Source: an uncultured Gammaproteobacteria bacterium (lineage in GTDB: Bacteria; Patescibacteriota; Microgenomatia; UBA1406; HO2-37-13b). From it: 64,000 bases of DNA. The notes beneath the pieces were generated by a model. The model worked only from the letters and a program-made list of their open reading frames with translations, was not told the DNA's origin and searched no databases. Position numbers and translations under genes: made by a program. The first letter of the stretch is position 1, and every line of letters starts with the position of its first letter. The DNA lies in contig CAYPSA010000001.1 in NCBI GenBank assembly GCA_964413645.1, positions 72,389 to 136,388 of the forward strand, given 5' to 3'. Below, piece by piece: positions 7,437 to 50,684 of the stretch.

Positions 7437-8033
7437 ATGAAATTCACATACATCACTGAAGGAGAAAAAGGCAAATACTCTGTTACCCAACCAGGGGAGT
7501 CGATTTTTTTTATTTATAATTATTCTGGAGCAGTTGAAATTTCTATTAAATCTCCGAATGCGAAAGTTTACATTTACGGCGTGTATATTGGTAAAAAGAA
7601 CGACAATTTTACCCTTAATACTATTCAACATCACAAAGTTGGCGAGAGTGTTTCGGATTTACTTATTAAGGGAATTTTTTTCGATGAATCTAAATTTCAT
7701 TATGAAGGGTTAATTCGAATCGACAAAAAAGCACAAAAGTCGAATGCGTATCAAAAAAATCAGAACTTAGTAATGTCGAAAGAAGTCTTTGTCGATTCTC
7801 GACCTTACTTGGAGATTTTGGCAAATGATGTTCGGTGCACTCACGGTTCCACAACAGGACAGTTGGACAAAGAGCAATTGTATTTTGCAAAAACTCGGGG
7901 ATTATCAGAAAAGGAGGCTCAAAAAATGCTTCTTGAAGGATTCATTGGCGACATATTCAATAAAATGGAAGAAGTAGGGTTAGAAAAGTCCGTCATCCTG
8001 AGCGTAGCGAAGGATCTAGGTGTGGAGAATTGA
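7437..8033 (+). CDS. sufD: SufD-like Fe-S assembly protein (short, 198 aa)
   Basis: SufB/SufD-family core (VRCTHGSTTGQLDKEQLYFAKTRG); follows sufB by 2 nt; last 13 codons (VILSVAKDLGVEN) are repeat-derived. Confidence 0.8.
   Translation: MKFTYITEGEKGKYSVTQPGESIFFIYNYSGAVEISIKSPNAKVYIYGVYIGKKNDNFTLNTIQHHKVGESVSDLLIKGIFFDESKFHYEGLIRIDKKAQKSNAYQKNQNLVMSKEVFVDSRPYLEILANDVRCTHGSTTGQLDKEQLYFAKTRGLSEKEAQKMLLEGFIGDIFNKMEEVGLEKSVILSVAKDLGVEN
7992..8025 (+). repeat. Family A unit inside the sufD 3' end
   Basis: gtcATCCTGAgcgtagcGAAGGATctaggtgtgg; translated VILSVAKDLGV. Confidence 0.9.
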
Positions 8034-8034
8034 T

Positions 8035-9243
8035 ATGTTCAATACACAACAAACAAAAAAGGATTTCCCAATTTTCACTAAAAACCCTGATCTGGTCTAT
8101 TTAGATTCTACTGCAACTTCACTTAAACCCCGAGTGGTTCTTGATAAACTGAATGAGTACTACACGCAATACTCTTCCAATATTCATCGTGGAATTTACG
8201 ACATTGCCGAAAAAGCCACGGCAGAATATGAATTGGCCCGGCAAAAAGTTGCAGGTTTTATTCACGCTTCACCAGAAGAAGTGATTTTTACATCCGGAAC
8301 TACTGATTCCATCAATCTTCTTGCGTCGAGTTTGGGAGAGGAAGTCGGGGCCGGTGATGAAATTTGTGTAACGATTGCTGATCATCATTCAAATTTTGTT
8401 CCGTGGCAACAACTGGCGCTTAAAAAAGGAGCAACGTTTAAAGCTCTGCCTGTCGAAGACGTCATTCTGAGCGTAGCGAAGAATCTAGGTGTTAGGACCA
8501 AAATTCTGGCCCTTCCCCTCATTTCCAACACCCTCGGTACCATTTTCCCAATTAAAGAAATTGCTCTTCAAGCTCGAAAAATAAATCCTGACATATGTGT
8601 AATTGTAGACGCTGCGCAAAGCGTTCCTCATAGAGCAATCAACGTTCAGAGTCTGGGAGCTGACTTTGTTGCTTTTTCAGGGCATAAAATGGTAGGTCCA
8701 ACAGGTATTGGAGTATTGTGGGGTCGACGGGATATTTTGGATCGTATGCCACCCTATAAATTCGGTGGGGAAATGATCGAATCTGTTTCGGTAGAAAAAA
8801 CAACTTTTAACTCGCTTCCTCATAAGTTTGAAGCAGGGACTCCACCGATAGCTCAGGCCATAGGACTCGGGGCAGCGGTCGACTATTTGCAGAGTGTAGG
8901 GATGGAGAAAATTGAGAAACATGAAAAAGCTCTCACTTCATTTGCTCGACAGGAGCTGGAGAGAGAGTTTGGCGAGAAAATTACCATCTACGGTCCAAGT
9001 GCAGGCGAAGACAGAGGGGGATTGCTTTCATTTACATTCGGAAATTATCATGCACATGATGTTGCTCAAATTCTTTCTGAGGATAATGTCGCTGTTCGAG
9101 CGGGTAACCATTGTACTATGCCATTACATACGGCTCTTGGTGTTGTAGCAACAGTCCGTGCAAGTTTTTATATGTATAATGACGAATCCGACGTTAAAAA
9201 ACTTGTTACCAGTTTACATAAAGTTACCAACCTCTTAGGTTGA
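8035..9243 (+). CDS. sufS: Cysteine desulfurase SufS (class V aminotransferase)
   Basis: FSGHKMVGPTGIG (PLP Lys), RAGNHCTMPLH (catalytic Cys); ATG 8035 preferred to GTG 8020 (after sufD stop, GGAG 7 nt upstream); repeat unit in frame at 8461-8493. Confidence 0.93.
   Translation: MFNTQQTKKDFPIFTKNPDLVYLDSTATSLKPRVVLDKLNEYYTQYSSNIHRGIYDIAEKATAEYELARQKVAGFIHASPEEVIFTSGTTDSINLLASSLGEEVGAGDEICVTIADHHSNFVPWQQLALKKGATFKALPVEDVILSVAKNLGVRTKILALPLISNTLGTIFPIKEIALQARKINPDICVIVDAAQSVPHRAINVQSLGADFVAFSGHKMVGPTGIGVLWGRRDILDRMPPYKFGGEMIESVSVEKTTFNSLPHKFEAGTPPIAQAIGLGAAVDYLQSVGMEKIEKHEKALTSFARQELEREFGEKITIYGPSAGEDRGGLLSFTFGNYHAHDVAQILSEDNVAVRAGNHCTMPLHTALGVVATVRASFYMYNDESDVKKLVTSLHKVTNLLG
8461..8493 (+). 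repeat. Family A unit in frame inside sufS
   Basis: gtcATTCTGAgcgtagcGAAGAATctaggtgtt; translated VILSVAKNLGV. Confidence 0.9.
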
Positions 9244-9271
9244 CAGTGCCTGTTCAACCTCTTAGGTTGCC
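9227..9271. repeat. Twin 15-nt palindrome repeat (family B), copy 2
   Basis: Palindromes CAACCTCTTAGGTTG at 9228-9242 and 9255-9269 with CAGTGC linker; the first supplies the sufS C-terminus NLLG and TGA. Confidence 0.9.
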
Positions 9272-9330
9272 ACCTTTGTCATTCTGAGCGGTACCTTTGT
9301 CATTCTGAGCGGAGCGAAGAATCTCCGTAT
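9272..9330 (+). repeat. Family A: 21-bp tandem duplication of the left end followed by a complete unit
   Basis: acctttgtcattctgagcggt / acctttgtcATTCTGAgcggagcGAAGAATctccgtat. Confidence 0.9.
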
Positions 9331-9803: not shown

Positions 9804-11570
9804 ATGTCTCATTTTCTGTGGAAAATTGGGGGTCAGGCAGGGTTTGGTGTCATGACGACTGGATTGTCATTTTCCAAAATTGCCACAAAAGTTGGCTACC
9901 ATATTTTCGATTGTTTTGAATATCCTTCGCTCATTCGAGGCGGGCATAATACGTATGATGTCATTCTCTCGCCGGAACCTGTGCACGCAATACAGCACGA
10001 CATTAATGTTCTTGTTTGTTTGAATAAAGAAACTTTTGAGCTCCACAAACACCGTCTCACTAAGGATTCAATTGTCATTTACGACGAGAATAGCTTCACG
10101 CCTTCCGAGAGTGGCTATAAGATAATTCATCTTCCTTTTAAAACAATGCTATTTGAAAATAAGGCATCTATGGTTATGGAAAATAATATTGCACTTGGAT
10201 GCTCTTTAGCAGTCCTAGACTGGCCGTATCAGATCCTCGATGATATGATCGAGCAAACATTCGCCGATAAAGGAGCTTCGGTTGTTTCTTTAAATAAAAA
10301 AATCTCTAAACTCGCATATGATTACGTCATAAAAAATCACGGCGATTTCATTATCCACGACTTTCCTGTTCTTAAAAAAACTGAACCAAAAATTGTCCTT
10401 ACTGGAAATGACGCATTTGCATATGGCGCTATTGCTGCCGATTGTCGACTATACGCTGCCTACCCCATGACTCCTTCCTCAACCGTTCTTACCACGCTTG
10501 CAGCGCATGCTCAAAAAACGGGCATGGTTGTGCGTCATGCTGAAGATGAAATATCAGTTATTAATACTGCGCTAGGAGCGAGTACTGCCGGTGTTCGCGC
10601 GGCTTGTGGAACATCGGGCGGAGGATTTGCGCTTATGGTTGAATCAATTTCATTTGCAGGAATTGCAGAAATCCCACTGGTTATTTTTATGAGTCAGCGT
10701 CCGGGACCAGCTACCGGACTGCCCAGTTGGACAGAACAAGGGGATTTGCTGTTTACCGTTCATGCAGGGCACGGGGAATTTCCAAAAATTGTACTAGCTC
10801 CCGGGGACCCATACGAAATGTACGCATTAACATTAAAAGCATTTGATTTAGCCGACTATTATCAAACGCCAGTTATTGTGCTGTCAGATAAACATCTTTC
10901 AGAAAGTAATATGAGTATTAATCACCTCGACCTTAAGCTCCTTAACAGAGCATATTCGCCTGATTCTGGAAAGCTCATTTGGAAAGCTAATCACTATCAA
11001 CGCTATGCCGATGTTCCCGATGGAATTTCCCCCCGCCTGGTTCCTGGATACCCCGGACAGTTTTATCAAGTGAATTCGTATGAGCATACAGCAGATAGCC
11101 ATACTACTGAAGATGCTCAAGAGAGAGTTATCCAAGTTAACAAGAGAAACAGAAAAACACAAACATATTTAGCAAAACATTTTGCTATGCCCGAAATTTT
11201 TGGTGATATAAATAAATCTGAAATTGTTTTTGTTTCATGGGGCAGTAATAAGGGGGCGATTTTGGAAGCACAGCGCATTTTAGCGGGCAAAGGAGAGAAA
11301 ACTGCGTTTATTCATTTCACCCACGTGTTTCCACTTGATGAGAGCAGGGTTGCCGCGCTCTTTATATTAAAGAAGAGATTCATTTTGATTGAAAATAATA
11401 GTCAGGGTCAGTTCGCCAAGCTCCTACGTGAGCAAACGGGTGTACATCTGAAAGAAAAAATTCTCAAGTACAACGGCCGCCAAATCCATGTTGAAGAAAT
11501 TGTTGATTACATTATTCCGGACTCCTCTGTCACTCTGAGCAGAGCGAAGAGTCTAGGTGTTAAACCATGA
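9804..11570 (+). CDS. 2-oxoacid:ferredoxin oxidoreductase, alpha (gamma-alpha fused) subunit
   Basis: 588 aa; GGQAGFGVMT N-terminus, YPMTPSS motif; 4-nt overlap with beta subunit gene; C-terminal 13 aa repeat-derived. Confidence 0.85.
   Translation: MSHFLWKIGGQAGFGVMTTGLSFSKIATKVGYHIFDCFEYPSLIRGGHNTYDVILSPEPVHAIQHDINVLVCLNKETFELHKHRLTKDSIVIYDENSFTPSESGYKIIHLPFKTMLFENKASMVMENNIALGCSLAVLDWPYQILDDMIEQTFADKGASVVSLNKKISKLAYDYVIKNHGDFIIHDFPVLKKTEPKIVLTGNDAFAYGAIAADCRLYAAYPMTPSSTVLTTLAAHAQKTGMVVRHAEDEISVINTALGASTAGVRAACGTSGGGFALMVESISFAGIAEIPLVIFMSQRPGPATGLPSWTEQGDLLFTVHAGHGEFPKIVLAPGDPYEMYALTLKAFDLADYYQTPVIVLSDKHLSESNMSINHLDLKLLNRAYSPDSGKLIWKANHYQRYADVPDGISPRLVPGYPGQFYQVNSYEHTADSHTTEDAQERVIQVNKRNRKTQTYLAKHFAMPEIFGDINKSEIVFVSWGSNKGAILEAQRILAGKGEKTAFIHFTHVFPLDESRVAALFILKKRFILIENNSQGQFAKLLREQTGVHLKEKILKYNGRQIHVEEIVDYIIPDSSVTLSRAKSLGVKP
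11529..11561 (+). repeat. Family A unit inside the 3' end of the oxidoreductase alpha gene
   Basis: gtcACTCTGAgcagagcGAAGAGTctaggtgtt; translated VTLSRAKSLGV. Confidence 0.9.
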
Positions 11571-14896: not shown

Positions 14897-14899
14897 TTA

Positions 14900-15010: not shown

Positions 15011-15805
15011 ATGGCACAAAAAAATGTAACGATTCCGCTTAACCAGAACACTATTCTCGTCGTCGCGTTAATCATTATGGCTTTCTTCGCAGGATACCTA
15101 TTCAATAAGAATAAGGCATTAGAAGAGAAAGCAAAAGTAGCAGTTGCTCCTGAAGCTCAAGAACAAAAGGCCGCTCCAATTTCAGCAGAAAAAGTAAATA
15201 AACTATTTGAAAAGGGATTTATTACTTTAGGAGATAAGAATGCAAAGATAAAATTTGTAGAAGTTTCTGATCCAAGCTGTCCTTACTGCCACGTAGCAGC
15301 TGGAAAAAATCCAGAACTTGCAGGTTCGGTTGGGCCACAATTTAAGTATGAATCTGAAGGTGGCACATACGTTCCTCCAGTTACCGAAATGCGAAAACTT
15401 GTAGAAGAAGGTAAAGCAGCATTTACCACCATTTATGCAAATGGACATGGAGCGGGAGAATTAGCAATGCAGGCGCTATATTGTGCTCATGATGATGGAA
15501 ATTTTTGGGAAGCACATGACATGCTTATGACAAACGCTGGTTACGAACTTATCAACAATGTCGTCAAAAACGATGTTGCAAATACAGGTAAGTTAGTCGA
15601 ATTCCTCGGTAACAAAATTAATGCTGCAAATGTAACCAAGTGTTTAACCGATAAAAAATATGTAGCACGTCTTACAACAGAACAACAACTTGCCATGGAC
15701 TTGGGTTTCCAAGGAACCCCATATTTCATCGTAAACACAACACCATTTGCGGGTGCATATAGCTACACCGACATCAAACCTACGGTTGATGGATTGTTGA
15801 AGTGA
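15011..15805 (+). CDS. Membrane-anchored DsbA-like thiol:disulfide oxidoreductase
   Basis: N-terminal TM helix and thioredoxin-fold CPYC motif; stop codon overlaps first unit of the repeat hotspot. Confidence 0.75.
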   Translation: MAQKNVTIPLNQNTILVVALIIMAFFAGYLFNKNKALEEKAKVAVAPEAQEQKAAPISAEKVNKLFEKGFITLGDKNAKIKFVEVSDPSCPYCHVAAGKNPELAGSVGPQFKYESEGGTYVPPVTEMRKLVEEGKAAFTTIYANGHGAGELAMQALYCAHDDGNFWEAHDMLMTNAGYELINNVVKNDVANTGKLVEFLGNKINAANVTKCLTDKKYVARLTTEQQLAMDLGFQGTPYFIVNTTPFAGAYSYTDIKPTVDGLLK

Positions 15806-16010
15806 CCCTGAGCTTGTCGAAGGGTCATCCTGAGCGACCCAGAGCATACGCGAGGGGAGTCGAAGGATCCCCGCTATCTGTCATTCTGAGCGCTTTGCCT
15901 GCCGCAGGTAGGTAGCGAAGAATCCCAATTGTGTCGTCGTACTTACGGCGCGAGATATCTGATCCGCCAGCTGGCGGAGAGACCATTTGACCTGCCTGCC
16001 GGCAGGCAGG
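15804..16010 (+). repeat. Repeat hotspot: three family A units with free-standing inner palindromes
   Basis: Units at 15804-15826, 15824-15870 and 15880-15925; hairpin gaTCCGCCagctGGCGGAgaga at 15961-15982; palindrome CCTGCCTGCCGGCAGGCAGG at 15991-16010. Confidence 0.9.
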
Positions 16011-16076
16011 GACTGCTACGCGGGCTCACTATGGTTGAGAATCACGATATCGAGCGGAGTATAAATCTTGAGGAGC

Positions 16077-19027: not shown

Positions 19028-19041
19028 CCTTTTTCTTGCGG

Positions 19042-19047
19042 TATAAT
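19042..19047 (+). promoter_or_regulatory. -10 box for lysK
   Basis: TATAAT 6 nt before ATG 19054; within the shared 15-mer GGTATAATACTCCTA. Confidence 0.6.
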
Positions 19048-19053
19048 ACTCCT

Positions 19054-20640
19054 ATGTTCTGGGCTGATCAATTAATACAAAACCTTGATAAAAAGTCTCA
19101 TCATCGTGTTGATGACATGAAAACTCCTTCAGGGCATGCTCATGCTGGGTCGTTACGCGCCATTGCAACACATGGCATTGTGTATGAAGCTATGAAAAAA
19201 GCAGGCTATGACGTTGATTTTACGTATGTAGTAAACGACATGGATCCAATGGATGGACTTCCCGTATATTTAGCTGAAGAAGAATACTCTCAACATATGG
19301 GAAAACCGCTTTTTACCATTCCTGCTCCCGATAAAAAATCTGAAAGTTTTGCTCATCAGTTTGCACACGAATATATAGGCGCATTTAATCACATTGGATT
19401 TACGCCAGAAATCTTGTGGTCTCACGAGTTGTATCAAAGTGGAGTCATGGATACGTATATTCGTCAGGCGCTTGATGGTGTTAAAAAAATCCGAGAAATT
19501 TATAAAAAAGTTGCTGATCAAAATAAACCAGAAGGTTGGTATCCGTTCCAGGTAATTTGTCCGCAATGCGGCAAAGTTGGGTCAAGTTTGGTAACTGATT
19601 GGGATGGAACCCTGGTAACATACGAGTGCAAACCTAATTTGGTAAAGTGGGCAATTGGTTGCGGTGCTGCTGGAACTATTTCTCCGTTTGGAGGAACCGG
19701 TAAACTCATGTGGAAAGTAGACTGGGCTGCGCATTGGGCTCACATTGGTGTAACTGTCGAAGGCGCAGGAAAAGATCATTTTAGCGCAGGAGGAAGTCGA
19801 TATGTTTCGGCTGCAGTGATGCAAGAGGTATTTGAAAAGGAACCTCCTTTTGGTTTTTTGCATGAATTTTTATTAATAGGCGGAGCTAAAATGTCATCTT
19901 CAAAAGGAAATGCAGTAACAGCTGCGGAATTGGTAACACTGCTCCCACCAGCCATCGGGAAATTCTTATTTGTTCGTACAGCGTATCAGCGGGCAATAAA
20001 TTTCGACCCAACGCTTTCCTCAACAATCCCTGATTTGTTCGATGAATATGATCGCTGTGCAAAAGCATTTTTTGAATCCGGAACAGAAACTGATATGGGA
20101 AGAATGTATGAAGCTGCTCAAATCGGGGAGCCCCCGTCCGCCAGCGGGCGGATCGGAAAAATGCACCTTCCTCGCTTCCGACAAATTGCCACGCTCATTC
20201 AAATGCCTTCGGTTGATGTAATTAAGTTCTTTGAAGCGGAAAAGGGGAGTGCACTTACTCAATCTGAACAGGATTTATTGCAAGAACGAACTCACTTTGC
20301 AAGAATTTGGTTGGAAAAGTATGCCGATGAAAAAGATACGTTTGCAATTTCTAAAACGCTTCCTTCGCGCGCGTCTGAATTAGACACCGATCAAAAGCAG
20401 TTCCTTAGCAGAGTGGCGACTGATCTGCTAAGCGAGCACTATTCCGACGGCGAAGCCTTGCAACAAGCAATATTTGAGCTTTCAAAGACTGTTGGACTGC
20501 CCCCAAAAAAGGCATTTCAGGCAATCTATTTGGTTCTCATAAACAAAGATCACGGACCAAAAGCTGGATGGCTATTATACGACGAAATGCAGAGCAATAA
20601 AGACTTCTTAATAGAACGATTTACGAGTGATATCGCCTAA
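19054..20640 (+). CDS. lysK: Lysyl-tRNA synthetase, class I
   Basis: FWADQL N-terminus, HIGH-like PSGHAHAGSLR, KMSSSKG (KMSKS); start moved from 19036 to ATG 19054 (TATAAT at 19042-19047). Confidence 0.88.
   Translation: MFWADQLIQNLDKKSHHRVDDMKTPSGHAHAGSLRAIATHGIVYEAMKKAGYDVDFTYVVNDMDPMDGLPVYLAEEEYSQHMGKPLFTIPAPDKKSESFAHQFAHEYIGAFNHIGFTPEILWSHELYQSGVMDTYIRQALDGVKKIREIYKKVADQNKPEGWYPFQVICPQCGKVGSSLVTDWDGTLVTYECKPNLVKWAIGCGAAGTISPFGGTGKLMWKVDWAAHWAHIGVTVEGAGKDHFSAGGSRYVSAAVMQEVFEKEPPFGFLHEFLLIGGAKMSSSKGNAVTAAELVTLLPPAIGKFLFVRTAYQRAINFDPTLSSTIPDLFDEYDRCAKAFFESGTETDMGRMYEAAQIGEPPSASGRIGKMHLPRFRQIATLIQMPSVDVIKFFEAEKGSALTQSEQDLLQERTHFARIWLEKYADEKDTFAISKTLPSRASELDTDQKQFLSRVATDLLSEHYSDGEALQQAIFELSKTVGLPPKKAFQAIYLVLINKDHGPKAGWLLYDEMQSNKDFLIERFTSDIA
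20123..20155 (+). repeat. GC-rich palindromic patch inside lysK (free-standing inner-hairpin type)
   Basis: cggggagcccccgTCCGCCagcgGGCGGAtcgg; same CCGCC/GGCGG hairpin as 15961, 48231 and 50344. Confidence 0.6.
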
Positions 20641-20661: not shown

Positions 20662-21939
20662 ATGCTTTCTATTGATTTTATCCGCGCCAACAAACAGAAA
20701 GTCGAACTTTGTTCGAAGAATAAAAACCGCCCGGTTGATGTAGATGCATTACTAGCTCTTGATGACACCCGCCGAGAACTTATTGGGAAAGTTCAAAAAC
20801 TCCGTGAAGAAAGAAATTCCCTTGCAAGTGCAGGGTCCGACGAGAGCGCACGGGAGCGCGGTCGAGTAATTAAGGATGAACTTAAGGTATTTGAAACAAA
20901 GCTTACCGATGTCGAAACAAAACTTAATGACCTCCTCTTAACCGTTCCAAATATATACCTTGATGAGGTTCCGGTAGGTACCGACGAATCGGGAAACCAA
21001 GAAATTTCAAAATGGGGAACTATTCCAGAATTTGACTTTACTCCCCTGTCGCATATTGAACTAGGAGAGAAGTTGGATCTAATTGATCTTAAACGAGGAA
21101 CGAAAGTATCGGGTTTTCGTGGCTATTTTCTAAAAAACCAAGCTGCTCAATTGCAAATGGCGCTCACGTTGTATGTTCTGAACAAACTCGTTAACAAAGG
21201 ATATACCCCGCTTCTTGCCCCCGCAGTTGTAAAAAGCTTTACAATGTTTGGAAATGGACAATTTCCGTGGGGAAAAGATGAAGTGTATGCGTTAAATGAT
21301 GACGATGCGTATTTGGCTGGTACTGCAGAAGTTCCAGTAACTGCGTATTTTGCTAATGAAACATTTTCGGAAAGTGACTTGCCCAAGAAGTTCGTCGCAT
21401 TTTCATCGTGCTTTCGCAGGGAAGCTGGCTCATATGGAAAAGATACAAAAGGCTTATACCGAGTTCATGAATTTTTCAAAATTGAACAGGTCATTATTGC
21501 AAAAGCGGATATAGAAGAAGCTAAAAAAATGCATGAAGAACTCCAACGAAATTGTGAAGAAATTCTACAAGAATTAAACCTCCCTTACCATATTTTACTT
21601 ATGTGCACCGGCGACATGGGAGAACCTCAAATGAAAAAGTATGATACTGAAGTCTGGATGCCATCTCGAAACGGGTACGGTGAAACAATGTCAAATTCCA
21701 TAATGGGCGATTTCCAAACACGACGTCTCAATATTAAATATAAAGATGCCCAAGGCAATATGCATTTCACCTATTCTCTAAACAATACTGCAATTGCATT
21801 TCCACGAATTCTGATTCCATTATTAGAAAATAACCAACAAAAAGACGGTTCAATTAAAGTTCCAGAAGTCCTTGTAAAATATACCGGCTTTGAAGTTATA
21901 TCTCCCCGTCATGCTGAGCGAAGCGAAGCATCTCAGTAA
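20662..21939 (+). CDS. serS: Seryl-tRNA synthetase
   Basis: Coiled-coil N-terminus, CFRREAGSYGKDTKGLYRVHEFFKIEQ motif 2; start moved from 20644 to ATG 20662; C-terminal RHAERSEASQ is repeat-derived. Confidence 0.93.
   Translation: MLSIDFIRANKQKVELCSKNKNRPVDVDALLALDDTRRELIGKVQKLREERNSLASAGSDESARERGRVIKDELKVFETKLTDVETKLNDLLLTVPNIYLDEVPVGTDESGNQEISKWGTIPEFDFTPLSHIELGEKLDLIDLKRGTKVSGFRGYFLKNQAAQLQMALTLYVLNKLVNKGYTPLLAPAVVKSFTMFGNGQFPWGKDEVYALNDDDAYLAGTAEVPVTAYFANETFSESDLPKKFVAFSSCFRREAGSYGKDTKGLYRVHEFFKIEQVIIAKADIEEAKKMHEELQRNCEEILQELNLPYHILLMCTGDMGEPQMKKYDTEVWMPSRNGYGETMSNSIMGDFQTRRLNIKYKDAQGNMHFTYSLNNTAIAFPRILIPLLENNQQKDGSIKVPEVLVKYTGFEVISPRHAERSEASQ
21908..21935 (+). repeat. Family A unit forming the serS 3' end
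   Basis: gtcATGCTGAgcgaagcGAAGCATctc; read in the alternative open frame as RHAERSEASQ-stop. Confidence 0.85.
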
Positions 21940-31594: not shown

Positions 31595-31602
31595 AATTAC
31601 TT

Positions 31603-32667
31603 ATGAAAATAATTTCAAAAAAAGATGGATCGCAAAAGGAGTTGATCGAAGAAATAAAAGCGGTCATTCTGGCCGGTGGACTTGTCGTATTACCATCGGA
31701 TACCGTGTATGGTTTATGCGTTGATGCGCGATCAAAATCTGCGGTAGAAAAGCTAATCTCATTTAAACGACGACCTGCCGGAAAGCCGATTTCAGTATTT
31801 GTCGGGAGCGTAGATCGAGCTCATAAGTATATTGCTCTCAATAAGAGTCAAAACGCTCTCTTAGATCAACTGGCTCCCGGACCATATACATTCGTTTTAC
31901 CCTCAAAAGGAGCGTTGCGCCCGGAACTTGAATCTGAACAAGGAAACTTAGGTATTCGTATTCCTGATAATGCATTTATTAATGAGCTCATTGATTCTCT
32001 CGATTTTCCCATAACCGCAACATCTGCAAACCTTGCCGGTGCGCATCCTCATTACTCTGTCGAGTCACTTTTGCAGAGTCTTTCAGATAAAAAGAAGCAA
32101 GAAATTGACCTCATTGTCGATGCAGGTAAACTTCCATATAACAAGCCCTCTACTGTTCTTGACCTAAGTCAAGAAACCGTTGCGGTTTTACGTGCTGGTG
32201 ATGATCAAATAACAGAGACACACACCTCTACATCCGCTACACAGACTGCTGCAATTGGGAAAAATATTCTCACTCAATTAAAGGAAAAAGCTTTCGACAA
32301 GCCTGCCATTATTATTCTCCAAGGAGAGCTTGGGGCAGGTAAAACGACACTCATTAAGGCAATCGGAGAAGAACTCGGAATAACCAACATTGTCTCTCCT
32401 ACCTATGTCGTGTGTTACGAGTATCCTACGACTGATGAGCATTTCAAGCTCTTTCATCACTGTGATTTTTACAATATAAAAGAAGGCGATGAGCTTAATT
32501 TTCTAGGAATTGACCAAATGCTCAAACCCAACACGCTCGTTGCAATAGAATGGGGCGAAAAAAGCGGACCAATTTTTGACATGCTAACACAAAAAGCACA
32601 AGTCGTTGTTGTCTCGATGAGTTATGTAACGCAAGATTGCCGAAAAATCGACATTAATTACCTATAA
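31603..32667 (+). CDS. Fusion of TsaC/YrdC (threonylcarbamoyl-AMP synthase) and TsaE (t6A ATPase)
   Basis: N-terminal LPSDTVYGLCVDA, KRRPAGKPISVFV, TSANLAG; C-terminal LQGELGAGKTTLIK, SPTYVV, HCDFYNI; ATG 31603 preferred to 31555, which reads through repeat units. Confidence 0.8.
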   Translation: MKIISKKDGSQKELIEEIKAVILAGGLVVLPSDTVYGLCVDARSKSAVEKLISFKRRPAGKPISVFVGSVDRAHKYIALNKSQNALLDQLAPGPYTFVLPSKGALRPELESEQGNLGIRIPDNAFINELIDSLDFPITATSANLAGAHPHYSVESLLQSLSDKKKQEIDLIVDAGKLPYNKPSTVLDLSQETVAVLRAGDDQITETHTSTSATQTAAIGKNILTQLKEKAFDKPAIIILQGELGAGKTTLIKAIGEELGITNIVSPTYVVCYEYPTTDEHFKLFHHCDFYNIKEGDELNFLGIDQMLKPNTLVAIEWGEKSGPIFDMLTQKAQVVVVSMSYVTQDCRKIDINYL

Positions 32668-32668: not shown

Positions 32669-32741
32669 GTCATTCTGAACGAAGTGAAGAATCTGGGTGC
32701 TAGGTTCTAGTATCGAGATCCTTCGTTTCACTCAGGATGAC
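32669..32741. repeat. Family A full-size element (two inverted units) between tsaC-tsaE and tsaD
   Basis: gtcATTCTGAacgaagtGAAGAATctgggtgc...gatccttcgtttcactcaggatgac. Confidence 0.9.
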
Positions 32742-32748: not shown

Positions 32749-33771
32749 ATGAAAATCCTATCAATCGATACTTCCTGCGACGAAACTTCTGTAGCCGTAA
32801 CAGAAGGCCAGAAGATTCTCGCAAATAAGATTTATTCGCAAGTTTTAATACATAAGAAATGGGGAGGAGTGGTCCCAGATCTGGCCAAACGCGCACATGA
32901 GGAGCATATCGATATTGTCGTAAATGAAGTGTTCAAAAAAGTTGAACAATCCAAAATTGATGCATTTGCCGTCACATATGGACCGGGTCTTGCTATAGCG
33001 CTTGAGGTAGGAATTTTGAAAGCAAAAGAACTATCTACACTATATAAGAAGCCACTTATTGCAGTTAATCATATGGAGGGGCATATTTATTCATGTTTTG
33101 CTCAAAATAGTGCAGGCAATCCTAAAAGCGAGTTTAAATTCCCATATATTGCGTTACTTATCTCGGGCGGGCACACCGAACTTGTTTTGTTTAAAGATCA
33201 TGGTATCTATGAAATCCTTGGTCAAACGGTCGATGATGCTGCGGGGGAAGCATTAGATAAAGCCGCAAAGCTTATTGGCTTAGGATATCCTGGCGGTGCG
33301 GTAATTGAAACGCTTGCTTTAAAAGGTAATAAAACATTCTTAAAATTTCCACGTCCTATGAAAGGATCAAAAGATCTTAACTTTTCATTTTCAGGACTTA
33401 AGACATCGTTTTATTACTACTATCGAGAATTGTCTGATAAAGACAAAACCTCGCAGCTGTATGATTTAGCCGCATCATACCAAGAAGCAGTTTTCGACAG
33501 TATCCTTCATAAACTTCAAAAAGCAATTGTTCAAACAGGAGTATCATCACTTGTTGTCGGTGGGGGAGTTGGAGCTAATAAATATCTGCGTGATCGAATT
33601 CGGGAACTTGCTAAAAAACATTCAGGAAGTGTGCGGTTTCCTGCGTATAAATATCTGTATGGCGATAATGCGGCCATGATTGGTATAGCTGCTCACTTTA
33701 AAGCTCTAAAAGGAGATTATGTGAATGATTTGACGAGTCTTCATAGAGTGCCCCGACTATCGTTGTCTTAG
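32749..33771 (+). CDS. tsaD: tRNA N6-adenosine threonylcarbamoyltransferase TsaD
   Basis: ILSIDTSCDETS, AVNHMEGHI, LLISGGHTEL, GGGVGANKYLR; alternative start 32737 lies inside a repeat arm. Confidence 0.92.
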   Translation: MKILSIDTSCDETSVAVTEGQKILANKIYSQVLIHKKWGGVVPDLAKRAHEEHIDIVVNEVFKKVEQSKIDAFAVTYGPGLAIALEVGILKAKELSTLYKKPLIAVNHMEGHIYSCFAQNSAGNPKSEFKFPYIALLISGGHTELVLFKDHGIYEILGQTVDDAAGEALDKAAKLIGLGYPGGAVIETLALKGNKTFLKFPRPMKGSKDLNFSFSGLKTSFYYYYRELSDKDKTSQLYDLAASYQEAVFDSILHKLQKAIVQTGVSSLVVGGGVGANKYLRDRIRELAKKHSGSVRFPAYKYLYGDNAAMIGIAAHFKALKGDYVNDLTSLHRVPRLSLS

Positions 33772-33846
33772 ACCCTGAGCGCAGTCGAAGGGTCATCCTG
33801 AGGGAGAGATCCGCCCGCTGGTGGAGACCGAAGGATCTAGGTGTTA
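33771..33846 (+). repeat. Two tandem family A units downstream of tsaD
   Basis: gACCCTGAgcgcagtcGAAGGGTc and gtcATCCTGAgggagagatccgcccgctggtggagaccGAAGGATctaggtgtt; same pairing of unit types as at 15804-15870. Confidence 0.9.
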
Positions 33847-33854
33847 CGAATCAT

Positions 33855-40660: not shown

Positions 40661-40758
40661 GTCATTCTGAGCGCCCTGCCTGCCGGCAGGCAGGTAGCGA
40701 AGAATCTCGGTGTGATTAACACCCAGATTCTTCAGTCGCTTTGCTCCTTAAGAGTGAC
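40661..40758. repeat. Family A full-size element with a 20-nt palindrome plugged into the core
   Basis: gtcATTCTGAgcgcCCTGCCTGCCGGCAGGCAGGtagcGAAGAATctcggtgtg...agattcttcagtcgctttgctccttaagagtgac. Confidence 0.9.
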
Positions 40759-42761: not shown

Positions 42762-43354
42762 GCGGCACGGCCTAGTTTGTAGTGGAGATTTTTTTCTTCT
42801 CGTTGTCCAATTTCTTTTGCAGGAACTCCTCCAACAATTGCATATGGAGGCACATCTTTCGTAACTACAGCACCTGCTCCTACAATTGCTCCAGTTCCAA
42901 TGGTAACTCCAGGGAGGATAATTGCACGGGGCCCAATAAATACGTAGTCTTGGATTGTCACGGGTGCAAGCACTATTCCTTCAGCTGCAGCAAAATGCTC
43001 ACTATTAATATTATGTTCGCTGTTGTAAATCATTACTTCGGAAGCAATATCGACATGATCTCCAATGGTTAGTTTCGCTCGACCATCAAGAACTGCGCTT
43101 TCACCAATAATCGTATCTTTACCGATTTTGATTTGGGTTGGATCATAAAAGCGGGTATGCATATGAATGCTTGATCCTTTGCCAATTGACACGCCTAGAA
43201 AGCGATACACTAAGCGTCTGAAATGATGAAGGGGAACACATCCTGCCATATGTGCAAAAAAGACTATAATTTCCAGCAGAATTGTCCGAACGCGTAATAC
43301 AGCTTTCATAGCAATTTCATCTGCTGTTAATGTTCGACCTGTTTTATCTTTCAT
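42749..43354 (-). CDS. Hexapeptide-repeat O-acetyltransferase (WcaF/LacA-like)
   Basis: Left-handed beta-helix repeats IGKDTIIGESAVLDG, IGDHVDIAS, IGPRAIILPGVTIGTGAIVGAGAVV. Confidence 0.8.
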   Translation of the reverse strand: MKDKTGRTLTADEIAMKAVLRVRTILLEIIVFFAHMAGCVPLHHFRRLVYRFLGVSIGKGSSIHMHTRFYDPTQIKIGKDTIIGESAVLDGRAKLTIGDHVDIASEVMIYNSEHNINSEHFAAAEGIVLAPVTIQDYVFIGPRAIILPGVTIGTGAIVGAGAVVTKDVPPYAIVGGVPAKEIGQREEKNLHYKLGRAAWFR

Positions 43355-43360
43355 ATTTTT

Positions 43361-43406
43361 GTCAACCTCTTAGGTTGCCAGTGCGTAGTCAACCTCTTAG
43401 GTTGCC
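43361..43406. repeat. Twin 15-nt palindrome repeat (family B), copy 3
   Basis: Palindromes CAACCTCTTAGGTTG at 43363-43377 and 43390-43404, CAGTGC linker, 27-bp phasing. Confidence 0.9.
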
Positions 43407-44489
43407 CACTTCCTTTAAAACGTTCAAGGTCTCATCCGCACATTTTTTCCAGCTGAATTCCTTGACTCTCTGTAATCCTTTGGCCTTCAAGGAAGCACGT
43501 AACTCATTGTTTGAGAGTACTTCATCAATTTTCTTTGCCATATCAATTGTATCATTTGGATCAAAATATACACAAGCATCACCGCAAACTTCAGGCAGGC
43601 TTGAATTGTTAGAAACAATTGCGGGGCAACCCGCACTCATTGCTTCCAGAGGAGGATTACCGAAGCCTTCGTACAGCGAAGGGAGAACATATGCTTGGGC
43701 ATGCTTGTACAGCGCGTTTTTTTCACCGTCAGTAACATATCCAGTAAACACTACGTCATCTTGGAGATTTAACTGCGTAACTCGCACATAAATTTCATCA
43801 TACAACCAGCCTTTTTTCCCAACTAGATAAAGCTTTAGGTCCGCATGTTCCTTTTTAAGGCTACTAAAGGCTTCTATGAGTTTTACCACATTTTTTCGAG
43901 GTTGCAGAGTTCCTACGTATAACAGGTATGGAGAGGTTGGCAACTTAACCTCTTCAGGAGTTTCAACTGAGCTTGTTATGTTAAACCCATTATGAATAAC
44001 TTCAATTTTTTGCTCAGGAGTTTCATAGAATTTAATAATATCCTTTTTCGTGTTTTCAGATACCGCAATAACTTTTGAAGAGCGATTTAGAGCATAACTC
44101 GTCCAGTTTTTAAGCTTATACAAATCTTTTTTTAAAAACTCTTCGGGATAATAAAAATAAGCCACGTCATGGATAGTTACAACCGTCTTAACAGAGCTAA
44201 ATCGAGGTATATAATGCGCAGGGCAAAACAAAACATCGGGTTTTTTATGCGTTGCTAAATATGCCGGAAAAAACACCTGACTCCAGGCAACTGAACCGGG
44301 AATTACTATGTATTTAAAATATTCATTTTGACTAGGAAGGTCAGAAAGAGGGGATTTTCGTAGGTAAATTACAAATTGTATTTTCTCACCCGCGCTCTTA
44401 TAAAACTCTCTTAGCAAATTTAGAGTATACAACGATACTCCCACTCGCTCGTTTACATTTGCTTCATTTCCATCTATTCCAATAATCAT
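43389..44489 (-). CDS. Glycosyltransferase family 4
   Basis: EGFGNPPLEAMSAGCPAIVSN motif; C-terminal NLRG and stop encoded by the twin palindrome. Confidence 0.85.
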   Translation of the reverse strand: MIIGIDGNEANVNERVGVSLYTLNLLREFYKSAGEKIQFVIYLRKSPLSDLPSQNEYFKYIVIPGSVAWSQVFFPAYLATHKKPDVLFCPAHYIPRFSSVKTVVTIHDVAYFYYPEEFLKKDLYKLKNWTSYALNRSSKVIAVSENTKKDIIKFYETPEQKIEVIHNGFNITSSVETPEEVKLPTSPYLLYVGTLQPRKNVVKLIEAFSSLKKEHADLKLYLVGKKGWLYDEIYVRVTQLNLQDDVVFTGYVTDGEKNALYKHAQAYVLPSLYEGFGNPPLEAMSAGCPAIVSNNSSLPEVCGDACVYFDPNDTIDMAKKIDEVLSNNELRASLKAKGLQRVKEFSWKKCADETLNVLKEVGNLRG

Positions 44490-46755: not shown

Positions 46756-48212
46756 AGCTTGAAGATCGTGGCTTTATTACTTTCAAACACAACCGAAAAA
46801 TCAGGTACTTTTTTGACTTCGACAATAACGTCGGGTTTATCGGTTACAAAATAATCAGCTCCTCGTTTGCGCAAGTCATGCAAATCTTCTGTGACTGCCG
46901 GATATCCTTTTCTATTTGAAACATATAGCAAAGTAGTGTCGCCTACAGTATCGGTTACAATAACCGCATCCTCTTCTGTTATTAAATTAATCGCCTGAGC
47001 GGTACTTACTAAACTATCCGAGATGTTGTAGTAATCTTTAACTCGTTCATATGAAAACATCCAGGATCCAGCAAAAATGATGATAATCGATGCCAGGAGC
47101 ATCGTTTGATTCGCTACTTTTTTACCCATTTGTACAAAAAGTGCAACTCCCAAGCCTACAAAAATCGCTACGGCCGGTAAAATTACGACTTGGTAATAAT
47201 CATGTTGCACATTTCCTCCTTGAAAAGTGAATAGATATAGCAGAGCACTTAATCCAATCGAGTAAAACAAAGCGCTTTTGAGTGGTTTCTTAATGATTCC
47301 CGCCATAAAGAACACAACGGTATATCCACCCAAGAGGAGTATTAAGATTCTTTCAAAGAAAATCCATCTGAAAAATGCCGGTCTAAAAAATACATTTTGC
47401 AATCCTCCTGCGGTGTTAACACCAAAAAATAGCCAATCACTTGCGGGAATTCCTTGTGGAAATTGGGTAATAAATAATCTCCACGCTATAAGTGGCGCAA
47501 CTGCTCCAAGAAAATATACATACATTGGAATATGTGAAACTACGCTATATCCATATCTCTTAAATAGTATAAACACGATTGGCAACAGGTAAAAAATAAC
47601 GGTAGGCTTTGTTAATAGTCCGCATATCACGAATAACATCGAGAGCGCAAGGAGGGCGCCTGCGTTTACTTTTGATTTTGTTGTGTGTTTTGCATATTGA
47701 TATGCAAAAAATATTCCCATGAACATAAATGAAACCGCTGCAGTATCGGGCAGCACAACTCGTGAGTAGTAAACGAAAAAGGGGAATACAGCAAATGTGA
47801 ATGCTGCAGCAATTGCTGCCACCTGACTTTCTTCGTAATACAGTAAGTAATATAGTATGCTTATGGTGATTAGTGAGAATAGAATTGTCACTAGACGACC
47901 ATATTGTTCTACGGGCATTATGGGAAGCACCGAGTGCAGAGTAGCAATAATACTCTGGTAAATTGGGAATTCAACATATCGTAACCCCTCTGGATTGTAT
48001 TGCCCCGTTTGTACATTTGATAAATCATCGTATCGGGGCTTAAGCAAGTCTATTCCATTTCTTGAGTAGTTACGGGCAACGGCAGCGGTGTCAGCTTGTC
48101 GCCATGAATGCCAGTCAGCCAAAGGAGATGTAAATTTATATAGTCGCAATACGAGTGCAAGCAGTAGTATCGCTCCTAATATAAGCGTATTTTTTTTTGA
48201 AAGAAAGTTCAT
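46752..48212 (-). CDS. GT-C fold membrane glycosyltransferase (PMT/ArnT-like, GT39/83-type)
   Basis: About 12 hydrophobic segments; first-loop motif WHSWRQADTAAVARNY; soluble C-terminal domain; ATG 48212 preferred to TTG 48239, which lies in a repeat. Confidence 0.7.
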   Translation of the reverse strand: MNFLSKKNTLILGAILLLALVLRLYKFTSPLADWHSWRQADTAAVARNYSRNGIDLLKPRYDDLSNVQTGQYNPEGLRYVEFPIYQSIIATLHSVLPIMPVEQYGRLVTILFSLITISILYYLLYYEESQVAAIAAAFTFAVFPFFVYYSRVVLPDTAAVSFMFMGIFFAYQYAKHTTKSKVNAGALLALSMLFVICGLLTKPTVIFYLLPIVFILFKRYGYSVVSHIPMYVYFLGAVAPLIAWRLFITQFPQGIPASDWLFFGVNTAGGLQNVFFRPAFFRWIFFERILILLLGGYTVVFFMAGIIKKPLKSALFYSIGLSALLYLFTFQGGNVQHDYYQVVILPAVAIFVGLGVALFVQMGKKVANQTMLLASIIIIFAGSWMFSYERVKDYYNISDSLVSTAQAINLITEEDAVIVTDTVGDTTLLYVSNRKGYPAVTEDLHDLRKRGADYFVTDKPDVIVEVKKVPDFSVVFESNKATIFKL

Positions 48213-48220
48213 AATAAATT

Positions 48221-48277
48221 CAACCTCTTTGTCCGCCAACTGGCGGAGACTGTGCCTACTTAAGCCCGCTGGTTGTC
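48221..48277 (+). repeat. Composite: half family-B palindrome, CCGCC/GGCGG hairpin and family-C motif
   Basis: caacctcttt-gTCCGCCaactGGCGGAgac-tgtgcctacttaagcccgctggttgtc. Confidence 0.75.
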
Positions 48278-49747
48278 CAGTCGGCCAATAAAGATCCCCA
48301 TGGTATACCAGAATATATACGCAACTTTGGAAGCTTCAAACACATCGATGTACCCCGCATTAATGAGCAAACCTCCTATCCCAAACAGGAGCGCTTTAAA
48401 TATATATTGTTCATTTTTTTCAAGTTTAGTAAGGCCAAGACGCACGTAATTTCCCATTGAATAAATAAGGTATAAGAATAATCCAAATCCAAGTAATCCA
48501 AATTCACCGAGCCATCGTAGGTAATCGTTATCGGTTGATTCTGTAATCGACGACGGTCCGGTGCCTAATAGTGGGTTTTTAAGTAACGCATTAATTGCTC
48601 GAGGCCATTCGACTTGTAGGCGAGTTGCAAAAGATATATCGGTCGCTACTGCAGACACTTCCTTGTAGTTGGCCGAATTAGTTGCACCAGGCACATTTCC
48701 AAGTCCACTTTTAGTCGCTTCTTTTATTGCTTCATTTATTGATTGAGCCTTAATCGCAGCAGCGTCAGCCGATTGCTTTGCTTGTGGTTTTATTTGGATA
48801 TATGATGTTCCAGCAGGTAATTCCTTACTACTAATTCGCTGCGATACAACGACTTGGCCTGTTTGTTCATTAACTAAAATTTGTTTAATCTGAAATGTTT
48901 TAAGTAGTCGTTGTGTTAAGTCTTTTTGCGAATATGCGAGTATTAATGAAAGAGTCAGTACAAAAGCAAAATGTCGATATCTTCTTACATACAACAAAAA
49001 TAATGGGGTTGTAAATAAATAGGCCAAAAAAGATGATCTTGAAGCTGTAAGCATTAAAATAAATACACCAAGCATAAATATGACATAGAGCGAAACGTGC
49101 AAATATTTTTTCCCTTTTGTTGCCAAAAAAGTACCAAATATAATTGGGAGCGTAAGGACTAAGTATGCAGCCAAGTCATAGTGTCCGCCGAATGTTGAAG
49201 AAATTCGAGCTTCAGGAGTAAGAAATAAAATATGCCCTTTTGCAAATTCAGGGTTCATAGTAGAGACAGCGGGTAAATTAAAAAACCGTTGTCCTATTCC
49301 GTAGAAACCAACTAACGCAAAAGAAACAATCAAGCTGCCCAGAAGCCAATTAAAATGCTTTCGTGATCGTATTGCATTTGCAGCAATAAAAAACACGATC
49401 ATATATTCTACACGTCGCGCAGCGTGTAGAAGGGCCAAATTATGATACGGCAGTGTTTTTGTAATAAAAATTCCACTCGCTACAGCTAAAAATACAGCTC
49501 CCCAGAATAATACAATTGGTTTTGTAAATACTGGGTGCAAGCTCGCCTTCTTTCGAAGTAATTGAATTACAAAGACCGCAGCGATAAATGCAACATAAAA
49601 ATCTTCTAAGCGAATAGCGATGTATGTATACGTTACGAAATGAAAGGGGATTTTTGGGTATAGAGGAATAATAAAGACAAACGCAGTTAAGAGAATCGTG
49701 AGAATATTGTCGTCAATTGTTTTTAGTAATGCCGTAAGCTTGCGCAT
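48260..49747 (-). CDS. O-antigen ligase/polymerase-like (Wzy_C domain) membrane protein
   Basis: Polytopic; large loop; DNDYLRWLGEFGLLGFGLFLYLIY resembles the Wzy_C family motif; C-terminal DNQRA and stop are repeat-derived. Confidence 0.65.
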   Translation of the reverse strand: MRKLTALLKTIDDNILTILLTAFVFIIPLYPKIPFHFVTYTYIAIRLEDFYVAFIAAVFVIQLLRKKASLHPVFTKPIVLFWGAVFLAVASGIFITKTLPYHNLALLHAARRVEYMIVFFIAANAIRSRKHFNWLLGSLIVSFALVGFYGIGQRFFNLPAVSTMNPEFAKGHILFLTPEARISSTFGGHYDLAAYLVLTLPIIFGTFLATKGKKYLHVSLYVIFMLGVFILMLTASRSSFLAYLFTTPLFLLYVRRYRHFAFVLTLSLILAYSQKDLTQRLLKTFQIKQILVNEQTGQVVVSQRISSKELPAGTSYIQIKPQAKQSADAAAIKAQSINEAIKEATKSGLGNVPGATNSANYKEVSAVATDISFATRLQVEWPRAINALLKNPLLGTGPSSITESTDNDYLRWLGEFGLLGFGLFLYLIYSMGNYVRLGLTKLEKNEQYIFKALLFGIGGLLINAGYIDVFEASKVAYIFWYTMGIFIGRLDNQRA

Positions 49748-50684
49748 AGGTTTTTGATAGATAGCTACTATTAATTATCTTTCCAATTGTAATACTAACA
49801 AGTGCCTTAAATTGTAGCATAATCCGTAACACATGTAATTGCAAGCGGCTATTATGTTTTTTGTAAAAATATAAAAAGCCTTTAAATACCTGAATTATCG
49901 GTTCACTGCGCCCATTGCTTGAAGCACTTCCCAAGTGAATTATACGTGAATTTGGATAAAATCCTGTCAGAAGATTATGTTTTTTTGCTCTGTATAGCAA
50001 GTCAATTTCTTCCATATACATAAATATGGCCTCATCAAATCCACCCAACATTTCAAAATCACTTTTTGCACACATAAAACAAGCTCCCGAAACCCAATCT
50101 ACTTGTTTGGTAAACCGTGGTGAAAAGCGGGTAAGACCATAATAATCACCTCGTAAAAATAGGGCAGCAAACACTACGGGTAGTGTATAAAAGTGTCCGG
50201 CCGAAGCTTGTGGCGTTTTCCCGTCTTTTTCTAAAAGCTTAGGACCGACGAAAGAGTATATATTTAAGTCGCTGGTAAAAAAGGAATACAAGGAGCTTAT
50301 ACTGTCAACCCCGTCAGTCTCAGCGATACCTTTGTCATTCCGATCCGCCATCTGGCGGAGAGGAATCTCAGCTCTGGCACCCAGGATCTCCGTATCCGAA
50401 TTCAAAAATAACAAATGTTTCCCCATTGCCTGTTTCACCGCCGCATTATTTCCCTTCCCAAATCCCAAGTTTTCTTTACTTTCTACTATCTTAATTGAGA
50501 GTGAAGAGTGCTGTTTTTTAAACTCGTGCAGCATAGCAATCGAATTATCAGTGGAGTCATTATCTAAGACAACAATTTCATATTTAAATGAAGCTTCCTC
50601 TAAGCCTAAAACAATCGTTTGCAGGCACTTTTTGGTGATTTGAGCAGTATTGTATGAAACTATGATGATCGATAGATCTACCAT
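49713..50684 (-). CDS. Glycosyltransferase family 2 (carries a 69-72 nt in-frame repeat insertion)
   Basis: MVDLSIIIVSYNT, VLDNDSTDNS, LFLNSD; ATG 50684 used (TGgTATACT box 6 nt upstream) instead of ORF-track 50885. Confidence 0.8.
   Translation of the reverse strand: MVDLSIIIVSYNTAQITKKCLQTIVLGLEEASFKYEIVVLDNDSTDNSIAMLHEFKKQHSSLSIKIVESKENLGFGKGNNAAVKQAMGKHLLFLNSDTEILGARAEIPLRQMADRNDKGIAETDGVDSISSLYSFFTSDLNIYSFVGPKLLEKDGKTPQASAGHFYTLPVVFAALFLRGDYYGLTRFSPRFTKQVDWVSGACFMCAKSDFEMLGGFDEAIFMYMEEIDLLYRAKKHNLLTGFYPNSRIIHLGSASSNGRSEPIIQVFKGFLYFYKKHNSRLQLHVLRIMLQFKALVSITIGKIINSSYLSKTYAQAYGITKNN
50326..50394 (+). repeat. Family A unit (antisense to the gene) inserted in frame in the GT2 gene
   Basis: acctttgtcATTCCGAtccgccatctggcggaGAGGAATctc...atctccgtat; same left and right ends as the intergenic copy at 9293-9330. 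Confidence 0.85.

Follow-up and report, generated by a model that had tools for sequence, protein, structure and literature searches.

A small hairpin repeat in and beside functional genes of a Patescibacteria genome segment, probably a further family of the CGTC-tagged REP superfamily

Whether a short mobile palindrome can settle in essential genes without destroying them is the question raised by a 64,000-nucleotide stretch of DNA (hereafter the window; GenBank assembly GCA_964413645.1, contig CAYPSA010000001.1, positions 72,389 to 136,388), in which copies of one palindromic unit, termed family A, lie within and between genes such as sufS, secA and serS. An earlier note on this DNA had proposed that a mobile palindrome inserts at random into functional genes, survives only in tolerant places and behaves like the palindromic elements of Rickettsia. 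Insertion into functional genes and survival in tolerant places are borne out by unit-free sites in close relatives; the randomness is not. We consider it likely that family A is a hairpin repeat of the REP (repetitive extragenic palindromic) type that belongs to the CGTC/TGTC-tagged superfamily, a non-autonomous element that spreads or is replaced as DNA and is kept where it is tolerated. The phenomenon itself is already known, and the unit of the window is a new family in a phylum that is not named among the published hosts in the sections of that literature available to us.

The unit has the layout [T/C]GTC-AT-NNN-GA-GC-GNA-GC-GA-N'N'N'-AT-C followed by a CTN tail, and measures 25-32 nt. 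In its predicted fold a 5-bp Watson-Crick stem leads inward to a GA/AG tandem, then to a GC/GC clamp, and closes in a 3-nt GNA loop with a free middle base. The base of the stem pairs A-T and T-A first and the remaining stem positions are variable; window units read AT-NNN...N'N'N'-AT, the single exception being a compensated AC...GT at 11529. Exact copies of the core GTCAYYCTGAGC number 11 in the window, every one of them on the plus strand, and 100 dinucleotide-preserving shuffles gave none. Approximately 15 element sites, between 5.9 and 50.8 kb of the window, were located with a profile built from eight copies together with a structure-aware pattern. Outside the window the profile proved too specific for the stem variants (one nhmmer match in 852 kb of related loci) and was therefore replaced by structure-aware patterns. 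Rfam at gathering thresholds returned only three tRNAs on the window, so that no described RNA family matches the unit.

Covariation provides the main support for the hairpin. Stems differ among the window copies in a compensated manner (ATTCT/AGAAT, ATCCT/AGGAT, ACTCT/AGAGT and ATGCT/AGCAT), and a scan of public contigs with the pattern GTCATNNNGAGCGNAGCGANNNATC, which leaves six stem positions free and for which full complementarity has a chance probability of 1/64, recovered fully complementary stems in 141 of 148 units from metagenome contigs and 142 of 151 units from viral contigs (viral figures, here and below, are among the matches listed). Unit-bearing public contigs range over 31-70% G+C. 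Directly before GTC, 12 of 18 window units have T and 3 have C; among the 148 metagenome units 129 have T and 15 have C, and among the 151 viral units 129 have T and 18 have C. The tail is CTC, CTG, CTT or CTA in 111 of the 148 metagenome units and CCA in 10.

Four full palindromes of 73-98 nt, each composed of two inverted units with their tags outward, fold far better than shuffles (z -3.5 to -6.6). The first (5922-6000) follows a partial 5' half unit (5903-5921) in the sufC/sufB spacer, and this element as a whole (5903-6000) folds as a three-way junction (z = -4.6); the second (28613-28699, z = -5.6) lies between the minus-strand enolase and 5'-3' exonuclease genes; the third (32669-32741) is noncoding, between tsaC-tsaE and tsaD; and the fourth (40661-40758, 98 nt, z = -6.6) contains a nested CCTGCC..GGCAGG palindrome. 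These elements, like all those placed below, are listed in plus-strand orientation. The head-to-head arrangement, found in 4/4 window dimers, outnumbers the tail-to-tail arrangement 12:1 in metagenome contigs and 5:1 in viral contigs. The IMG/VR contigs in question (L211-L330) carry at least 151 tagged hairpin units in 120 stretches classed as viral; phages could spread the unit between hosts, or such stretches could be prophage or host regions.

To decide whether these units were inserted, orthologues from relatives at 79-94% protein identity to the window were compared. The closest relatives by SufS and SecA similarity are of the Microgenomates/Roizmanbacteria type (Patescibacteria); SufS identity does not exceed 57% in species-representative genomes, and metagenome proteins grade from 94% downward. 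Many public records titled 'uncultured Gammaproteobacteria bacterium' (L001, L002, L005-L008 and others) have SufS loci that group by similarity with Roizmanbacteria and Microgenomates genomes, and the label looks wrong. The earlier note had set alignment against unit-free relatives as the test beforehand, and the alignments returned empty sites at secA, GT2, the serS end, the GT4 end and three spacers.

The most complete series is that of secA. The site is empty in L086 and L087 (SecA 88-90% identity), and L088 (91%) carries a plain unit encoding VILSESEGS. In the window the gene carries the unit as in L088 with a 15-nt palindrome nested in its loop, a composite at 23534-23572 (GTCATCCTGAGC, nested TCCGCCGCGGGCGGA, then AGTGAGGGATCC) that encodes VILSSAAGGSEGS, a peptide across the junction taking in DNDGVILSSAAGGSEGSSSSK; L085 (94%) carries a partial unit, a newer unit and the 3' remnant of the old one. 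The site falls in a 53-residue segment that lies beyond the motif ...DIVLGG and has no counterpart in Thermotoga maritima SecA 3DIN, and distant Roizmanbacteria differ by up to 50 residues at this point. As a separate observation, the C-terminus of SecA (24590-24700) bears a histidine-rich tract, HAGHNHDDHDHVHDHSGHDHSHAGHTHTH, just ahead of the zinc-binding SEC-C motif.

A comparable series exists for the glycosyltransferase gene GT2, in which the element (50313-50384, antisense to the gene) consists of a partial unit (50313-50333), a composite unit (50334-50367, with nested TCCGCCATCTGGCGGA) and a tail. In the secA and GT2 composites alike, the palindrome nested in the unit loop is of a second type, TCCGCC..GGCGGA. 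The GT2 copy encodes ...EIPLRQMADRND... within a 24-residue insert placed right after the NSDTEI strand and modelled as coil with pLDDT < 50; the insert is absent from L210, from P0245-P0248 (79-83% identity) and from all more distant homologues, and L209 retains a 7-residue remnant. At the serS end, where a single unit (21908-21939) provides the last 10 codons and the stop (RHAERSEASQ), L088 is unit-free (417 aa, ending ...VISPLQ and a stop), and L087, L086 and L085 carry one or two extra 18-nt partial units with the frame kept. Both the window and L209 have the 98-nt dimer between GT4 and the gene that follows it, and the right arm of the dimer (40732-40758), on the minus strand, is read as the last 8 codons and stop of GT4 (VTLKEQSD). 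In L210 the site is empty, and a GT4 of 366 aa shares an ATGA overlap with the following gene. Among the spacers, the sufC/sufB site is empty in L082 and L084, where the two genes overlap by ATGA; a 21-nt partial unit plus full unit in the sufS/nifU spacer (9278-9330) is absent in L081, where only neighbouring CAACCTCTTAGGTTG repeats remain; and a decayed unit with a weak profile match (50716-50743), upstream of the true GT2 start (ATG 50684, minus strand), is absent in L210.

The units are thus, to judge from these alignments, true insertions into intact, conserved genes. Readings in which they reflect assembly artefacts, pseudogenes or the absence of any insertion were ruled out, the genes being intact and single-copy and the inserts recurring in independent assemblies. 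No consistent target-site duplication was found at five empty/filled site pairs, the sole candidate being a possible AAT at the GT4 site.

Other sites show repeated occupation rather than presence and absence. In sufS a single unit identical to the family profile consensus (8461-8492) encodes VILSVAKNLGV (residues 143-153; across the unit junction the peptide is ALPVEDVILSVAK). Because 371 profile positions are matched by 370 residues in the Pfam alignment, the unit replaces approximately 14 native residues without net gain in length, and it is modelled as a surface helix (residues 140-150, pLDDT ~72) where the native protein has a connecting segment. The peptide has been passed on, with drift, in independently assembled relatives of 90-82% identity (VILSVAKNLGV, VILSATKDLGV, VILSVTKDLGV), and in L083 three synonymous changes have removed the pairing with the peptide retained. 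Five different variants occupy the SufS site among relatives. The same loop has also gathered unrelated inserts in distant Microgenomates. In a distant Roizmanbacteria genome (L019, ~6469-6500) it holds GCCTGCCTCGCCGGCAGGCAGG, a version of the palindrome CCTGCCTGCCGGCAGGCAGG that is nested in family A loops in the window; here it stands alone and encodes PASPAGR.

In sufD a single unit (7992-8033) provides the last 13 codons and stop (VILSVAKDLGVEN); L081 and L083 carry another variant (VIPNEVRNLSLLN, then stop) with compensatory stem changes, and in SufD proteins further away the tails are unrelated and vary in length. SufD itself (7437-8033) has only 198 residues and matches just the C-terminal part of the SUFBD core profile, positions 96-232 of 232, close relatives being equally short. 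In the gene for the alpha subunit of the pyruvate oxidoreductase (POR-alpha) a single unit with the stem ACTCT/AGAGT (11529-11570) provides the last 13 codons (VTLSRAKSLGVKP, then a stop that overlaps the POR-beta start as ATGA); L081 has a full dimer there with the stem ATTCC/GGAAT, and L083 a unit with the stem ATTTC/GAAAT. The SufS loop and the sufD, POR-alpha and serS ends each present a different variant in each close relative, most of them perfectly paired.

These patterns do not agree with random insertion. The same sites are hit again, new units nest in old ones, orientation is strand-biased and gene interiors are depleted: although 94.6% of the window is coding, only 3 of approximately 15 sites are gene-internal. 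Other palindromes (TCCGCC..GGCGGA and CCTGCC..GGCAGG) sit in unit loops, and full units are preceded by stacked 5' half units. The earlier note expected surface loops; the internal units were placed in a disordered loop of GT2, a variable insert of SecA and a surface helix of SufS, all of them tolerant positions. Among strictly defined units, 11/12 lie on the plus strand, including those in minus-strand gene blocks, the exception being the right arm of a dimer, and distant pairs on the same contig are co-oriented in ratios of 8:1 (metagenome) and 17:6 (viral). Orientation goes with the DNA strand, whichever way the gene reads.

In the mechanism that we propose, units would spread or be replaced as DNA, and a single-stranded hairpin formed while the DNA is replicated or repaired is the most likely intermediate. 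Such an intermediate is suggested, by analogy with IS200/IS605 and REP/RAYT systems, because insertion has a strand polarity, target duplications are lacking and existing hairpins are targeted. Many landings fall in gene ends and interiors because so much of the segment is coding and its genes often overlap, and selection would then spare only those in spacers, those that alter a few codons at a C-terminus and the rare in-frame insertions in tolerant surface segments. An established unit would attract further units, nested in its loop or stacked as 5' halves, or be overwritten by another family member, which would account for the different variants found at one site in close relatives.

A stronger version of this process, which we regard as unlikely, is an active exchange of hairpins at fixed landing sites, directed by structure and aimed at a hairpin already in place, either at its loop or at its 5' side. 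The agent could be a single-strand nuclease or recombinase, perhaps phage-borne, or replication template switching. If this were true, essential proteins of these very small genomes would contain short peptide cassettes whose sequence changes from one close relative to the next, and the same conserved machinery would explain one 25-nt design with compensated stems across the full range of base composition and in viral contigs. The turnover of variants at one site could reflect gene conversion, re-insertion or fast compensatory change.

That ambiguity is also one of several points that weigh against the spreading of a non-autonomous superfamily member as proposed above. The others are as follows. 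Close relatives supplied no empty site at the POR-alpha end or the sufD end. No mobilising enzyme was seen in the ~64 kb covered, with no transposase-like Pfam domain among the genes of the window or the syntenic loci. The strand bias is defined against the plus strand of the contig and not against the direction of replication. Nearest-neighbour folding energies of single units are no better than those of shuffles (z -0.8 to +0.1), so that support for the hairpin comes from covariation and not from energy; GCGNAGC is a classic, very stable DNA mini-hairpin motif, and the energy model applied gives it no credit. Finally, the published stems of the superfamily measure 8-9 bp with loops of 4-5 nt (PMC3733652), and the window unit has 5 pairs plus GA/AG and the GC clamp with a 3-nt loop, its stem amounting to nine stacked positions only when the GA pairs are included.

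Genic units might alternatively be retained for a function, because the peptide is useful or because the structure acts as a signal in RNA or DNA that affects pausing, processing or the control of the gene downstream. Units do persist at the same sites over relatives of 82-94% identity, orthologous stems at sufD and POR-alpha differ yet remain perfectly paired, units cluster at gene 3' ends like REPs with proposed mRNA roles (PMC3733652), and the L083 SufS gene, in which the peptide outlived the pairing, suggests constraint on the peptide. This explanation has to contend with close relatives that lack units in secA, GT2, serS and GT4, with an orientation that tracks the DNA strand and makes the GT2 copy antisense, with peptides that are wholly different between relatives at one site, and with a GT2 insert modelled as disordered. 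We therefore judge it quite improbable, and the encoded peptides may well be neutral. At gene ends units may have a role, for instance in stabilising or terminating transcripts; the data do not require it, and it fits poorly with the antisense GT2 copy and the unit-free alleles.

A third possibility is that the coding overlaps are annotation artefacts, open reading frames (ORFs) having been run into spacer repeats that are never translated. This does hold for three N-terminal overlaps. Longest-ORF starts for secA (TTG 21890), tsaC-tsaE (GTG 31555) and tsaD (ATG 32737) take in the units at 21908, at 31545-31597 (a noncoding partial plus full unit) and at 32669-32741, all of which lie upstream of the real starts (ATG 21947, ATG 31604 and ATG 32750); homology and the canonical N-termini begin downstream of the units, the Pfam match of tsaC-tsaE beginning 37 residues into the extended ORF and the true N-terminus of tsaD being MKILSIDTSCD. 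The claim that at least nine coding sequences overlap a unit stands only if such mechanical extensions are counted, and seven truly translate one. These seven have host genes confirmed by Pfam (SufD, SufS, POR alpha, SerS, SecA, GT4 and GT2), with internal units in sufS, secA and GT2 and C-terminal units in sufD, POR-alpha, serS and GT4. In the former group conserved protein continues in frame on either side of the unit, and in the latter no stop precedes the unit, which must therefore be read. Independent public gene calls agree, P0241 being 100% identical to the window GT2 and P0001 and P0002 carrying the same SufS peptide. As a general account, annotation artefact is accordingly very unlikely, and the peptides reported earlier for sufD, sufS, POR-alpha, secA, serS and GT4 are all present as quoted. 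A variant unit (GACCCTGAGC...) overlaps the stop codon of the DsbA-like gene, which ends at 15805, and likewise that of tsaD, which ends at 33771.

The reading frames of the translated copies carry less information than had been supposed. The earlier note described a shared frame for every sense-oriented copy but that of serS, which uses the other open frame; the description is accurate, and a split of 5:1 between the two open frames falls short of significance (two-sided binomial p ~0.22), becoming 5:2 with an independent SufS-loop insertion in L016 and L024 that uses the other open frame (HPEQSEGS). The frame containing TGA is indeed never used internally, which is true by definition of any copy inside an intact ORF, and use of stop-free frames fails as evidence, since any intact gene shows an open frame. 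The third frame is closed only because stems here end in T (TCA-TNC-TGA); stems ending in C leave it open, and the Rickettsia peptide SFPRKRES uses it (PMC3733652). An ORF-context census of metagenome contigs, confined to clear cases since chance long ORFs in G+C-rich contigs blur the classes, found 7 long frames in other genomes that end on the unit's own TGA, at gene ends. The real trace of a frame filter is the length of partial units, which measure 18 or 21 nt inside genes versus 19, 21 and 23 nt in spacers.

That no mobile element exists at all, the hairpins arising locally by slippage or template switching and sharing their sequence by convergence, is scarcely credible, for although tandem 5' half units ahead of full units resemble stuttering, insertion hot spots such as the SufS loop gather unrelated low-complexity or palindromic inserts in other lineages, and neither target-site duplication nor transposase was found, a 25-nt consensus (fixed tag, GAGCG-N-AGCGA core and AT/AT base) that recurs across 31-70% G+C and in viral contigs excludes local convergence, and whole 98-nt dimers stand at sites that are cleanly empty in a relative.

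The remaining elements of the window lie at gene boundaries. A unit cluster occupies the convergent spacer past the DsbA-like gene (15802-16011), in which the variant GTGACCCTGAGCTTGTCGAAGGGTC holds the TGA stop of that gene, long-loop units begin at 15824 and 15880, and the palindromes TCCGCCAGCTGGCGGA and CCTGCCTGCCGGCAGGCAGG are nested; CCTGCCTGCCGGCAGGCAGG is found in family A loops at 15990-16011 and again at 40674-40695. At the tsaD stop codon a variant unit is followed by a unit with a nested TCCGCC..GGTGGA palindrome (33771-33851). Directly upstream of tsaD, TsaC (Sua5/YrdC) and TsaE are fused in one protein (31604-32667), a fusion also present in L085 and L086. Neither the profile nor the structure-aware pattern detected a unit between 51000 and 64000; this part is a cell-division/cell-wall block (mraZ, mraW, PBP and mur ligases) that lies on the plus strand like the unit-rich first 24 kb.

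Family A is accompanied by other repeats. A second repeat family, CAACCTCTTAGGTTG, occurs at 2143-2204, 9215-9276, 43350-43411 and 48208-48238, usually as two copies 27 nt apart and at gene boundaries; its copy at 9215-9245 provides the last codons and stop of SufS (...KVTNLLG), which in relatives without the repeat ends ...RVETIL. In lysS (19036-20640, class I lysyl-tRNA synthetase) a TCCGCC-AGCG-GGCGGA palindrome at 20135-20155 encodes PSASGRI, so that a second palindrome family is also present in coding sequence; L085 has a decayed copy, and L086 and L087 have unrelated, shorter sequence at this position.

Rickettsia and the bacteria of the 2013 survey were the earlier settings in which tiny palindromes proved able to live in essential genes without destroying them; the third, seen here, is a streamlined, gene-dense Patescibacteria genome in which almost any landing strikes coding sequence. 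The value of the locus lies in an unusually clear series of empty, singly filled, nested, stacked and replaced sites in relatives, and in how widely the unit is distributed, viral contigs included. Such a graded series of sites is raw material for inferring the chemistry of insertion and for seeking the enzyme of CGTC-type REPs. It also carries a warning for annotation, as units make false N-terminal extensions, change C-termini and seed spurious 'hypothetical proteins' in metagenomes.

Among known systems, several can be set aside as the identity of the unit. A miniature inverted-repeat transposable element (MITE) was rejected for want of a consistent target-site duplication at empty/filled sites, and the classical Rickettsia palindromic element RPE-1 and the GTAG-tagged REPIN on element size and tag. 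Literal literature searches for the DNA core and the peptides returned chance primer matches or nothing, which is not proof that the unit is undescribed. IS200/IS605 elements offer an analogy only: they share a hairpin with an adjacent short unpaired motif, the lack of target duplication and co-oriented insertions, but no TnpA gene, defined left and right ends or conserved target motif was identified for the window unit. The likeness to REPIN/RAYT systems extends to short hairpins, inverted doublets as the likely mobile unit, the lack of target-site duplication and singles that resemble doublet remnants; those systems, however, have a GTAG tag and a tyrosine HUH transposase, whereas the tag here is [T/C]GTC and no RAYT gene was seen in the window, and REPINs are essentially extragenic.

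The Rickettsia palindromic elements (RPEs) of Ogata et al. 2000 are in-frame palindromic repeats in unrelated functional housekeeping genes, placed compatibly with the fold (cited in PMC10969869). In the window, secA, GT2 and sufS are likewise interrupted in frame with conserved sequence on either side. RPE-1, by contrast, measures ~100-150 bp and encodes a module of 30-50 residues, whereas a single window unit measures 25-32 nt and encodes 8-13 residues, and the genic copies are mostly single units; in addition, most genic copies in the window only rewrite a C-terminus, the SufS unit replaces residues and the host belongs to another phylum. The likeness to Rickettsia nevertheless goes beyond the analogy drawn in the earlier note, since the unit fits a superfamily that holds RPE-4 (CGTC-4) and RPE-6 (CGTC-1), a link that rests on the statement to this effect in PMC3733652 and not on RPE sequences.

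That superfamily, the CGTC-tagged REPs of Di Nocera, De Gregorio and Rocco 2013, is the closest match. According to the available sections of their survey, which also count Neisseria dRS3 among the members, the tag is often TGTC (a CCTC variant being allowed), the first stem pairs are A-T and T-A, the tail is short, head-to-head dimers predominate, units lie near gene 3' ends and inside genes, and the 2013 survey found no dedicated transposase (PMC3733652). The window unit agrees in tag, stem base, dimer type and intragenic placement; its peptides start with VI- (VILSVAKNL) like the published VIPAKAGI, which is listed there among intragenic peptides together with SFPRKRES (PMC3733652). The published repeats lack an adjacent transposase gene (PMC3733652); among the called genes of the syntenic loci that cover the window, no transposase-like Pfam family was found. 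A short tail is present in the window unit and reads mostly CTN, where the published 3-nt consensus is CCA. Patescibacteria are not among the hosts named, nor are nesting, half-unit stacking or variant turnover at orthologous sites described, in those sections of PMC3733652. Because stem/loop geometry and tail differ, we file the unit as a further family of the CGTC superfamily and not as one of the four published.

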